Source: Mobula hypostoma (taxonomy: Eukaryota). Taken from it: a stretch of 64,000 nt of DNA. The position numbers and the translations under genes were made by a program. Location of the stretch: positions 43,898,001 to 43,962,000 of the forward strand of contig NC_086097.1 of assembly GCF_963921235.1 (NCBI RefSeq), in the 5' to 3' direction. Below the pieces are notes generated by a model. It worked only from the letters and a program-made list of their open reading frames with translations. It had not been told where the DNA came from and searched no databases. Shown here piece after piece: positions 9,965 to 16,125 of this stretch (position 1 is the stretch's first letter; every line of letters starts with the position of its first letter).

Positions 9965-10245
9965 AACACAAGGATGTCCCTTTAGAACAGAGATTAGGAG
10001 AAATTTCTTTAGCCAGTGGGTGGTGAATCTGTGGAATTCATTGCCACAGACAGCTGTGAAGGCCAAGTCATTTAGGTACATTTAAAGCAGATGTTGATAG
10101 ATTCTTAATTAGTAAGGATGTCAAAGGTTACAAGGAGATGGCAGGAGAGTGGGGTTGAAAGGGATAATAAATAAATCAAGCATGATCAAATGGCAGAGAA
10201 GACTTGGTGGTCTGAGTGATCTAATTCTGCCCCATGTCTTAGAAT
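9965..10245 (+). mobile_element. CR1 3'-end fragment
   Basis: FRTEIRRNFFSQWVVNLWNSLPQ followed by the CR1 3' UTR. Confidence 0.85.
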
Positions 10246-10249
10246 AATG

Positions 10250-10975
10250 AAATTTCATTTCTTCCCACTGGGATTACGGCAGTGTTTCTCTAAGCTCTAG
10301 AGTTACAAAATACACGTGGACTAAGACGTTAACTGTCCTGTGCTATCACCAGTGGGATCATCAGTTGATCTGCCACCTGTCTTCAGGAGTTTCGGCCCGC
10401 TTATGATCAAGACTCCCTCGAGGTGGTGGGCCAGCAGTGCTAAAGCACCACCTCCCACTGGTGAGCTTAAAAACTTGGCATCTGCCTCTATCAGAGTTGT
10501 TGGTCACTTCCATCCAACAGATAGTCTGCTCTTCAGGTGTCTATGGAACTACTGAAGGGTTTGCAAAAGATGGATACGCTGTCTGACTATCTGCCCCTCT
10601 GGTGCTTTCTTCAACTCAACCAAATCAAACATGTACTTTCCAACATCATAAATCATATCGCCCATCACTTCCAACTTTCTCTTTGATGTTCCTCTGAGAG
10701 TATTCTCCAACATCATACTGATATCCTCATCAAATACACGCCAAGCCTTCTCATCTGCCATTGCTGGCCACTTGACCTTCCTCTTCTTCTCTACCTCCAC
10801 ACCACCGCCGTCATGCGAAGGATCTACCTGGGTACTGTGGTCTGAAACCTGACCTGGATTATCTCTCGTCTGACCTGGAGTATGATGACTCTCTCCAGAG
10901 CGAGTCGCTGTGGCTTGTGAATCAGTGGTTGAAAAGACCACATCATCTGTGCTTGGCGAAATAATCTCATCTTCA
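10250..10975 (-). mobile_element. Internally deleted HERO-like (restriction-like endonuclease class) non-LTR retrotransposon
   Basis: ORF 10549-10941 contains KVKWPAMADEKAWRVFDEDISMMLE, which resembles the HERO N-terminal region as I recall it. No RT is present. A highly structured 3' region follows. Confidence 0.7.
10346..10464 (-). ncRNA. Candidate non-circularly permuted hammerhead ribozyme
   Basis: Minus strand reads GGAG-UC-UUGAUC..GGGCC-GAAA-CUCC..GAUCAA-CUGAUGA-UCCCACUGGUGA, with six complementary helices (see findings). Confidence 0.7.
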
Positions 10976-10979
10976 TCTA

Positions 10980-11335
10980 TAAGAAAGCATAGCCTTTTAT
11001 GCCTTAGTTATTGAAGTACTTGTCTAGACTCTTCTTAAATGTTGTCAGAGTATCTGCCTCCACCATCTCTTCAAGCAGTGCATGCCAAGTCCAACGTCCT
11101 CTCAGATCTCCTGAAAACAAATAAATAAATCTCCTACTGCTCACCTTAAACCTGTTCCATCCTACCTGAGATATCCCCAATATGGAAATATTAGTTTTCA
11201 CTATCTGTCCACCTTAGAATTTTATATACTTGCAGCAAGTCACCTCTCTGCTCAAAACAAACCCCAGCCTATCCAGTTTCTACTTTTAACTGAAATGCTC
11301 TAATCCTGGCAACATCTTGGTGAATCTCCTCTGGG
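10980..11335 (-). mobile_element. CR1 3' fragment
   Basis: Minus strand reads VEADTLTTFKKSLDKY, and an RFTKMLPGL-like segment. Confidence 0.75.
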
Positions 11336-14290: not shown

Positions 14291-15803
14291 GAATAGAATA
14301 CAGCACAGTACAAGCCCTTCAGTCCACAATGTCCTGCCGACACTTTAACCTACAACATCAATCTAACCCTTCTCTTCCACATAGAGCTCCATTTTTTGAT
14401 TCAAGAGACTATTAAATGTTCCTAATGTTCCTAATGTACCTGCCTCTATCATCACCCTTAAAAGCTCATTCTGTGCATCTACCACTCTCTAGGGAAAAAA
14501 AAACTCTGAAATTTCCCCTATACTTCCTTCACAAAATCTTAAAGTTATGCTCCCTTCTATTTATAGTATTTATTTAGAGATGAAGTGTGGAATAGACCCT
14601 TCGTGTCCTTTGAGTTGTGCTGCCAGCAACTCCCAATTTAAGCCCAGCCTAATCATATGACAATTTACAATGACCAATTAACCTACTAACCAGTACATCT
14701 TTAGACCCTGGAGGAAACCCACACACTCCATGGGAGGGACTTACCTACTTCTTACAGAGGACCGTGGGATTGAACTCCACATTCCAACGCCCTGATCTGT
14801 AATAGTGTTGCACCAACTGCTACACTAGCGTGGCATCCATTTAGCTTCCATGATCCATTTCTGCCCTGGGAAAAGGTCTCCGCCTGTTGACTTGATCTAT
14901 GACTCTGAGCATCTTGTACACCTTTATCAAGACACCTCTCATCCTCCTTCACTCCAAAGAGAAAAGCTCTAGCTTGTTCAACCCAACCTCATAAGACATG
15001 CTCTCTAATCCTAATAAATCTCCTTTGCATGCACTCTAAAGCCTTCTTATCCTTACTTTAATGAAGCGATTTGAATTGAACATAATACTTCAAGTGTCTC
15101 TAACCAGAGTTGTTGTTGTTTTTTTTAAAAAGAGCTGCAACATTACTTCATAGCTCCTGAACTAATGAAGGCCAACTCCCCTGACTAATGAAGGCCAACA
15201 TTATATGCCTTCTTAATCACCCTATCAACTTATGTTGCAGTTTTGAGGGATCTATGGACATGAAATCCAAGATCTCTTTGTTTGTTTGTCCACACCATTA
15301 AGAATCCTACTATTAACCCTGTATCCTGTCTTCAAATTAGACCTTTCAAAGTGAATCACTTTGCACTTTTCTAGGTTGAACTCCATCTGCCATTTCTCAT
15401 CCCAGATGTGCATCCTATTAATGTCCTGTTATAAGTTATCACAACTTACTACATTTTCCACATCACCACCTAGCTTTGTATCATCCACTTTCACATTCTA
15501 GTCACATATAGAAATCGTAAAGAGCAGGGCTCCCAGAACAGATCCCTGCAGAATGCCAACCTATTTCCTCAAAGATTTCCAACAGATTTGTCAGGCAAGA
15601 TTTCCCCTGAAGGAAACCACGTTGACTTTGGCCTATTTTATCATATGCTTTCAAACACCCTGAAACCTCATCCTTAACAAGGGATTTCAACATCTTCCCA
15701 ATCACTGATATTAGATTAACTAGTCTATAATTTACTTTTTTCTGCCTTCCTCCTTTGTTAAAGAATGGAGTGACATTTGCAATTTTCCAGTCCTCTGGAA
15801 CCA
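14291..15803 (-). mobile_element. CR1 fragments (RT to 3' end) interrupted by a SINE
   Basis: ORF 15502-15804 reads VPEDWKIANVTPFF..GKSCLTNL. The 3' end is near 14291. Confidence 0.85.
14564..14838 (-). mobile_element. tRNA-derived V-SINE (HE1-like) with a CR1-type tail
   Basis: tRNA-like head, a gtgggtttcctcc core, and attta on both sides (14559-14563 and 14839-14843). Confidence 0.75.
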
Positions 15804-15814
15804 ATTTATAATCT

Positions 15815-16125
15815 GGTAATGCTTGAAGAGACTTGGAACGTCACCAAAGACACCTGCAAATTTCTACAGATGTACCGTGGAGAACGTTCTAACTGGCTGC
15901 ATCACCATCTGCTATGGGGGTGGGGGGGGGGTAAGTCACTGCAGAGTATTGGCAAAAGCTGCAAGTTGCAAACTCAGCCACCTCAATCTTGGGCATTAGC
16001 CTCCTCAGCATCCAGGACACCTTGAAAAGTTTGATGCCTCAGAAAGGTGGTGTCCATCATTAAGGACCCACATCACCCAGGACATGCCCTCTTTTCATTG
16101 CTACCATCAGGGAGGAGGTACAGAA
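15815..16125 (+). mobile_element. Rex1 3' fragment
   Basis: NFYRCTVENVLTGCIT, IIKDPHHPGH and LPSGRRY. Confidence 0.8.

Follow-up and report, generated by a model that had tools for sequence, protein, structure and literature searches.

A doubly pseudoknotted six-helix domain in the 3' UTR of an R2-superfamily LINE of Mobula hypostoma is probably a hammerhead ribozyme of unusual wiring

A 64,000-nucleotide stretch of the genome of Mobula hypostoma (contig NC_086097.1, positions 43,898,001 to 43,962,000; hereafter the window) carries on its minus strand a conserved, doubly pseudoknotted domain with six helices in the 3' UTR of a LINE, which we consider likely to be a hammerhead ribozyme with unusual wiring. 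To judge from its sequence, the domain looks like a new natural form of the hammerhead. The class of permutation to which it belongs is known (PMC10085705), and neither the opening of the chain between the core nucleotides A9 and G10.1 nor a LINE host is described in the accessible text of that paper.

The minus-strand letters from 10464 to 10346 are identical to those transcribed in an earlier note on this DNA, and all of the helices, the core motifs and the site that it named are present (Table 1). From 5' to 3', the core motifs occur in the order GUC, GAAA, CUGAUGA, i.e., site, GAAA, CUGANGA. The strand carrying positions 10.x is located 75 nt upstream and not directly behind A9, and a continuous backbone from A9 to 10.1 is absent. 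The UCCCAC that follows A9 is unable to pair with the GGGCC before G12; its partner is the 5' end of the domain, with which it forms the closing helix X, and in three relatives a 3-nt spacer stands behind A9. The nested helices alone are predicted to fold with -51.4 kcal/mol (z = -3.25), and none of 200 shuffled sequences was equally stable.

Table 1. Features of the LINE copy and of the candidate ribozyme domain (window coordinates)
Feature	Coordinates	Strand	Remarks
N-terminal ORF fragment of the same LINE family	10603..11007	minus	fused directly to the 3' module
LINE 3' module	10299..10602	minus	last ~13 nt of the ORF, stop codon and ~290-nt 3' UTR, no poly(A) tail
Six-helix domain	10346..10464	minus	119 nt; predicted hammerhead fold
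Helix X, 5' strand (closing helix)	10453..10464	minus	UCACCAGUGGGA/UCCCACUGGUGA; 12 perfect pairs, 10464-10453 with 10357-10346
Hairpin H	10433..10452	minus	GGUGGUGC-UUUA-GCACUGCU; 8 pairs, three of them G-U; adjoins X and Y with zero unpaired bases; four-way junction
Helix Y, 5' strand (stem II strand 10.1-10.5)	10428..10432	minus	G10.1 = 10432; partner 10394-10398
Helix Z, 5' strand	10421..10426	minus	pseudoknot joining stems I and II; partner 10373-10378
Stem III strand 16.5-16.1	10412..10416	minus	U16.1 = 10412; partner 10386-10390; GGAGU/ACUCC
Predicted cleavage site	10410..10411	minus	after C17 (10411), before U1.1 (10410); by analogy with the hammerhead core
Stem I strand 1.1-1.6	10405..10410	minus	partner 10365-10370; UUGAUC/GAUCAA
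Helix Y, 3' strand (stem II strand 11.5-11.1)	10394..10398	minus	GGCCC/GGGCC pairing
GAAA (G12, A13, A14, A15.1)	10390..10393	minus	core motif
Stem III strand 15.2-15.5	10386..10389	minus	pairing, and covariation in relatives
Helix Z, 3' strand	10373..10378	minus	CCACCU/AGGUGG pairing
Stem I strand 2.6-2.1	10365..10370	minus	partner 10405-10410
CUGAUGA (C3-A9)	10358..10364	minus	core motif
Helix X, 3' strand	10346..10357	minus	begins right behind A9
3' tail	10299..10345	minus	47 nt; small hairpin (GGAC...GUCC); extends to the element end

The placement of the candidate in the 3' region of a retrotransposon, as proposed in the earlier note, is borne out by the anatomy of the element: the domain lies in the 3' UTR of a LINE with a restriction-like endonuclease (RLE), and 47 nt separate the end of helix X from the element end. 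In full copies the stop codon is reached after about 13 nt of the 304-nt 3' module, which is why the domain is assigned to the UTR; the terminus of the latter reads ...UUUUGUAACUCU, and a poly(A) tail or signal is absent. The copy in the window appears to be an internally deleted derivative of the LINE, since the N-terminal piece of the ORF is directly joined to the 3' module. A 152-aa open frame is continuous through the 10602/10603 junction, and in other copies the C-terminus with reverse transcriptase (RT) and RLE stands upstream of 10602. Part of the upstream piece is common to the copies L023 and L024. A 221-nt query around the site yielded 1721 candidates in the 3.5-Gb genome of M. hypostoma itself, with 40 scored matches at 99 to 100% identity, and this stretch is present in at least 787 genome copies. 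The 29 other copies that were compared have a fixed 3' end at about 10299 and a variable 5' truncation, which reads as the signature of a LINE. The ORF of longer copies contains the Pfam domains RVT_1 (E = 8e-9) and zf-RVT, and in a protein alignment with eight relatives the CCHC set (C403, C406, H414, C419) and the columns of the RPD...E...K motif (R512, P513, D514, E529) are invariant. These features fit a host ORF composed of an RT, a CCHC motif and a restriction-like endonuclease of the R2 superfamily.

A protein search retrieved 76 relatives with 23 to 69% identity, among them proteins of amphioxus and teleosts as well as many contigs of 3.6 to 4.4 kb. A Ulp protease domain, a trait of NeSL/Utopia elements, was observed in some of the more distant relatives. 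An alignment-based scan of metagenome contigs gave 230 matched stretches, 186 of which encode a relative, and the best 80 of the 186 were kept as loci. These 80 contigs were searched with a descriptor consisting of CTGANGA, TH, GAAA, a stem I of at least 4 bp and a stem III of at least 5 bp. In the order site, GAAA, CUGANGA, the descriptor matched 35 times on the ORF strand (34 loci) versus once on the opposite strand, and the five other block orders gave 12 matches on both strands together. Two of the descriptor matches were discarded or flagged: the first match in L068 lies inside the ORF and was dropped, the genuine motif being found later downstream in the same locus, and the match in L100 relied on a spurious GAAA.

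Among the 50 metagenome loci that cover the ORF C-terminus together with 250 nt or more of the sequence behind it, 36 carry the motif downstream of the ORF. A clear motif was not found in the remaining 14, of which five have no more than 400 nt of downstream sequence. A broader covariance model used without filters recovered additional motifs in L068, L096, L105, L136 and L137 as well as a decayed motif at the 5' start of L085. In the relatives, a tail of 25 to 50 nt with a small hairpin, read by eye, follows the domain, and no tRNA genes adjoin the motif in the eight loci inspected. A DNA query (2063 candidates) revealed a second abundant family in the genome of M. hypostoma with the same fold and other sequences; the motif of this family shares 85 to 89% identity with that of one metagenome relative, and its subfamilies have either A or C at position 17.

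A joint parse of the relatives resulted in 27 non-redundant instances of 107 to 126 nt, each with six helices and with quite different sequences. The helices of L088, for instance, are AGGCAUCACCC/GGGUGAUGCCU (X), CCAGGAACU/AGUUCCUGG (Z), GGCGGC/GCCGCC (Y), GUAGU/ACUAC (stem III) and CCGUUG/CAACGG (stem I). The helices of the joint parse were optimised by the analysis script, and its counts, including the four to six pair types per position of stem I, are biased upward. A less biased check is provided by the seed alignment and the model-made alignment of the covariance model R1. Its seed consisted of ten distant relatives similar to one another, chosen because an alignment of the 27 sequences with MAFFT alone was faulty in the 5' half; the window was left out, and the model was restricted to the nested helices X, H, Z and III. 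In a search of 316 kb on both strands, R1 gave 30 matches at E <= 1, all 30 of them on the ORF strand, and it recognised the window domain with 60.7 bits (E = 3.4e-12).

In the seed alignment, 90.4% of the cells pair versus only 32 to 41% with slid partners, and 21 of the 43 pairs are compensatory. The model-made alignment of 29 distinct rows has 94.0% of 1083 cells paired, compared with 59.3% for shuffles and 37 to 43% for slid partners, and both-sided changes occur in 37 of its 40 pairs. The covariation score was 0.794 versus 0.197, and none of 500 shuffles reached any of the measures. With respect to the individual helices, covariation was recorded in all 12 pairs of X and in all seven modelled pairs of hairpin H (97.2% of cells paired), and compensatory changes in 7/7 pairs of Z and 4/6 of stem III (95.2% of cells paired). 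The two remaining helices stand outside the model; compensatory changes were found in the first three pairs of stem I (3/3; 95.1% of cells paired) and in four of the five pairs of Y (93.6%). The six-helix, pseudoknotted and non-circularly permuted model put forward in the earlier note thus stands, with covariation in every helix and an invariant core among distant relatives, including the CUGANGA, GAAA and NUH elements whose conservation in homologues it had made the touchstone.

The core columns were read from rows of the covariance model and not of the descriptor; among these rows, L083 and L100 are flagged as decayed copies and L120 for an alignment gap. CUGA is invariant (30/30 rows), and position 7 is free (U in 17 rows, A in 8, G in 3 and C in 2). 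G8 and A9 are conserved in all rows but one (29/30 each), the decayed L083 departing at both positions, and G12 is a G in 28 of 29, the exception being the decayed L100. A13, A14 and U16.1 are kept throughout (29/29). Position 17 is C in 15 rows, A in ten, U in four and G in none. G10.1 has a G in every row (30/30), and 27 of 29 rows have a C at C11.1; this first pair of helix Y is G-C in 26 rows and G-U in one. A15.1-U16.1 is retained in 27 rows out of 28, and the next pair of stem III, C15.2-G16.2, is G-C in 26. The nearly fixed pairs coincide with those that are fixed in hammerheads.

Further changes were seen in sequencing runs of other organisms. The helix X pair 10461-10349, which is C-G in the window, is U-A in locus L076 and in two of the four runs compared (X10 and X12, from two other organisms). 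At full depth, the contigs of these two runs have T in place of C at plus-strand position 10349 and A in place of G at 10461, and the 171-nt contig of run X10 has no further listed change within the domain. L076 differs from the window by three compensated pairs in helix X. The double change from C-G to U-A was not seen in the other two runs, X13 and X15, in which all copies were decayed or of low depth and had CpG changes, G12 being changed to A in four X15 contigs; these changes are taken as neutral decay and as evidence neither way.

CUGAUGA, GAAA and GUC are all short, and Rfam has no hammerhead match here, so that a chance resemblance to hammerhead motifs in a structured UTR deserves consideration. 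This explanation has a negligible probability in our view. The same motifs are found at the same places relative to six covarying helices in 27 non-redundant relatives, the median pairwise identity of the motif is 47%, and the strand and order control stands at 35 versus 1. Together with the R1 model and the covariation, this control refutes chance for practical purposes.

The domain was compared with catalogued and published structures, as suggested in the earlier note. Rfam 15 had zero matches across the window at the gathering score, nothing hammerhead-like between positions 10000 and 10800 at E <= 10 and zero hammerhead matches in 20 relatives, and the block order turned out to be that of a published class. 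Natural non-circular hammerhead permutations, whose existence the note had correctly mentioned, were described by Eckert, Friedrich, Weinberg and Weinberg (NAR 2023; PMC10085705) in unnamed metatranscriptome RNAs, the first time that non-circular permutations of a ribozyme were shown. These authors distinguished three core blocks, termed S (site), G (GAAA) and C (CUGAnGA) and assumed to be uninterrupted. Their type SGC is known from 407 and 176 sequences with validated cleavage, type CSG from two sequences that both cleaved in vitro, and type GCS from a single tested candidate with incomplete cleavage and without covariation support (PMC10085705).

The domain in the window resembles type SGC in the order site, GAAA, CUGANGA, in the two pseudoknots of the core and in the invariance of the latter, and it also shares the short link between stem I and stem II (PMC10085705). 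An extra helix is indicated for type SGC by the structure line of the supplement, which pairs a segment 5' of 2.x with a segment 3' of 10.x (PMC10085705); helix Z is its equivalent, because it joins the segment 3' of 10.x to the segment 5' of 2.x. The two differ in the position of strand 10.x: in the type SGC alignments it directly follows CUGANGA, and the strand behind CUGAUGA pairs with the strand before GAAA (PMC10085705), whereas in the window it is placed upstream of the site block. Only in the latter does the chain open between A9 and G10.1, with the approximately 12-bp helix X and the four-way junction with hairpin H closing the gap. We infer that the motif corresponds to type SGC circularly permuted once more, with its ends in the core. 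Given the assumption of unbroken blocks, the break of the backbone between A9 and G10.1 is without tested precedent in the accessible text of PMC10085705. Wiring opened at this point was found in no Rfam family and nowhere in the searchable literature, whose coverage is incomplete. The sources differ as well, i.e., metatranscriptome contigs that also contain hairpin ribozymes for type SGC (PMC10085705) versus 3' UTRs of autonomous LINEs in animal-type genomes for the present domain, and cleavage, validated for the former, is predicted for the latter. With the classic hammerheads of types I, II and III the domain has in common the core nucleotides, stems I to III, the pairs G10.1-C11.1 and A15.1-U16.1 and an H17 that is not G; it is distinguished from them by a connectivity that circular permutation cannot reach, by the lack of a three-way junction and by the lack of an Rfam match.

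In the proposed model, the chain has its opening within the core, between A9 and G10.1, and helix X of about 12 bp clamps the strand behind CUGAUGA to the far 5' strand. Helix X, hairpin H, stem II (helix Y, carrying G10.1-C11.1) and the core meet in a four-way junction with zero unpaired bases. The RNA is predicted to cleave itself behind C10411 by hammerhead chemistry. About 28 base pairs would then still hold the two products together, and for this reason re-ligation or the formation of circles is conceivable.

What such a cut would do in the cell can be approached through the anatomy of the genomic copies. A cut RNA that served as template would give DNA copies starting at U10410. In the genome of M. 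hypostoma, 787 intact GUC|UUGAUC junctions contrast with zero copies that have a foreign triplet before U1.1; this pattern search would let through about 42% of true truncations. Of the 29 other copies with the best match to the last 112 nt, none begins at the predicted site, and the shortest reaches 247 nt. In the second family, no copy starts at the site versus 70 intact junctions; its two odd junctions both belong to full copies that carry a minor alteration. Reverse transcription therefore uses a template that is continuous across the site. The idea raised in the earlier note that cleavage might define the RNA 3' end does not survive this result where the transposed RNA is concerned. The absence of a poly(A) tail or signal would make a ribozyme that sets the 3' end of the transposition template attractive. 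Such a cut would lose the last 112 nt, which are kept by all copies (787 intact junctions), and the fixed 3' end is situated 47 nt past helix X. This role is contradicted by the copy anatomy and has to be regarded as very improbable.

The same absence of copies starting at the site is also what would be expected if the domain were an RT recognition structure for target-primed reverse transcription, with a hammerhead fold whose cutting is absent or irrelevant in the cell. R2-type elements place an RT-binding RNA near their 3' end, i.e., at the same place, and the distance of the domain from the 3' end is 25 to 50 nt in all families inspected. Moreover, the shortest copies among 58 others examined have at least 237 nt, as if the whole domain were needed. 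A mere protein scaffold would have no need of the exact hammerhead pattern, which is present here in full: the catalytic bases are invariant with position 7 left free, position 17 is C, A or U and never G, and both C15.2-G16.2 and G10.1-C11.1 are kept. A purely structural function is accordingly judged possible and rather unlikely, and recognition and cutting are not mutually exclusive.

A hammerhead ribozyme thus remains the favoured explanation, and its most likely role, the weakest step of the proposal, would be to cut multimeric or read-through transcripts, e.g., from head-to-tail arrays, to unit length. The folded domain is probably also the 3' recognition module for the RT of the element, and both functions are compatible. 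Direct repeats with a period of 3.64 to 3.84 kb, corresponding to one element length, were detected in seven of the 28 contigs of relatives with at least 3750 nt. Five of these repeats are imperfect (92 to 99% identical) and for that reason represent real head-to-tail copies; the two others are exact terminal overlaps, which are an assembler product of tandem or circular molecules. From this arrangement, cutting of tandem transcripts by the domain, the second option of the earlier note, is plausible. Since a pattern search, in which the 5' end used was uncertain, did not find a tandem junction in the genome of M. hypostoma, the processing role is deduced solely from the relatives. A more far-reaching scenario is that this LINE clade uses the predicted ribozyme in the manner of viroids and retrozymes: transcripts of arrays would be cut and re-joined via X, Y, Z, I and III into a circular RNA serving as both messenger and template, on which the RT would start internally, 25 to 50 nt beyond the ribozyme. 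We regard this scenario as speculative and improbable.

Among other retroelements, Penelope-like elements and retrozymes likewise carry hammerheads, often in tandem copies and with a presumed function in the processing of multimeric transcripts (Cervera and de la Pena). These hammerheads are of type I or minimal dimeric forms in non-LINE or non-autonomous hosts, whereas the present domain is pseudoknotted and belongs to an autonomous RLE LINE. The HDV-like ribozymes of R2 and other LINEs (PMC13725137) are comparable in being self-cleaving, built into a LINE of the R2 superfamily and involved in the processing of co-transcripts. They represent another ribozyme class, are located at the 5' end and cut at the element boundary, in contrast to the predicted site inside the 3' UTR. 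The 3' UTR RNA bound by the R2 protein (PMC12222951) is also pseudoknotted and near the 3' end of an RLE LINE, and a hammerhead core is not reported in the accessible part of that study. In the searchable literature, including PMC13725137, no hammerhead in the 3' UTR of an RLE LINE was found; the coverage is incomplete and a report could exist.

The proposed ribozyme would represent a non-circular hammerhead form in animal genomes that is present in thousands of copies in a widespread clade of autonomous retrotransposons. It would constitute a fourth way of opening this topology, with the ends in the catalytic core and the gap bridged by a four-way junction, and the wiring bears on the question of how much of the hammerhead backbone is dispensable. 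Searches that assume unbroken blocks would then miss real members. For LINEs, a ribozyme in the 3' UTR would be added to the known HDV-like ribozymes at the 5' end, which raises the question of whether their RNA passes through a cut, re-ligated or circular stage. Should the circular reading prove correct, a circular RNA stage would be established in LINEs for the first time, and these elements would be the autonomous equivalents of retrozymes.

The predicted six-helix, pseudoknotted hammerhead-like motif recurs, with different sequences, in a second abundant family of the M. hypostoma genome (2063 candidates; loci L145 to L154; example in the table). These motifs are 85-89% identical to that of metagenome contig L112, with the second-family subfamilies down to 71-91% upstream of the motif, and position 17, the base just 5' of the predicted cleavage site, is A or C depending on the subfamily. 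In the protein search, the relatives P0001 to P0003, which come from an amphioxus hybrid assembly and from contigs, showed 66-69% identity over 535 amino acids, versus about 43% for teleost relatives. This distribution is patchy for a vertebrate-sized genome, and horizontal spread is possible.

The architecture varies among the relatives. The loop of hairpin H holds the palindrome UGAUCA in 15 of 30 aligned motifs, and two RNAs could kiss through this self-complementary loop; in the family represented in the window, UGAUCA is instead located in stem I. In a subgroup of four metagenome loci (L074, L116, L140, and L068), the H domain is much enlarged (~50 nt), and three extra bases (GCA or UGA) separate A9, the last base of CUGAUGA, from the closing helix X; the junction therefore tolerates a spacer. 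Another group (L071, L119, L131, and L133) carries the tRNA T-arm-like stretch GGUUCRAAUCC ~40-80 nt upstream of helix X, where ARAGORN called no tRNA. Between helix X and the 3' end of the element in the window, a small hairpin (GGAC...GUCC) was read by eye, as were corresponding hairpins (CACC...GGUG or CAUCC...GGGUG) in the 3' tails of relatives.

Features of the window and of related loci
Feature	Location	Strand	Remark
Second-family locus with the motif, example	L145:1440-1700		Own genome
H loop with UGAUCA, example	L082:3452-3477		
UGAUCA in stem I	10404-10409		Window
3' tail with small hairpin	10299-10345	-	Window
N-terminal ORF piece + 3' module	10603-11007 joined to 10299-10602	-	In-frame fusion
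Open frames resembling fragments of another, unrelated reverse transcriptase	15252-15840	-	By look of frames

Of 28 long contigs of relatives, 7 (L066, L075, L079, L084, L085, L093, and L112) contain repeats arranged head to tail, whose period of 3.64-3.84 kb corresponds to the length of one element. Two of the seven have exact terminal overlaps of 55 and 111 nt, which could alternatively indicate circular molecules.

The LINE copy in the window is internally deleted: an N-terminal ORF piece is joined to the 3' module, and the reading frame continues across the junction. The open frames that resemble fragments of another, unrelated reverse transcriptase lie 5 kb upstream of this copy on the same strand. 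The own-genome copies L023 and L024 partly share the arrangement of ORF piece and 3' module but have other junctions, and short deletion derivatives that retain the ribozyme domain may therefore be mobile themselves.
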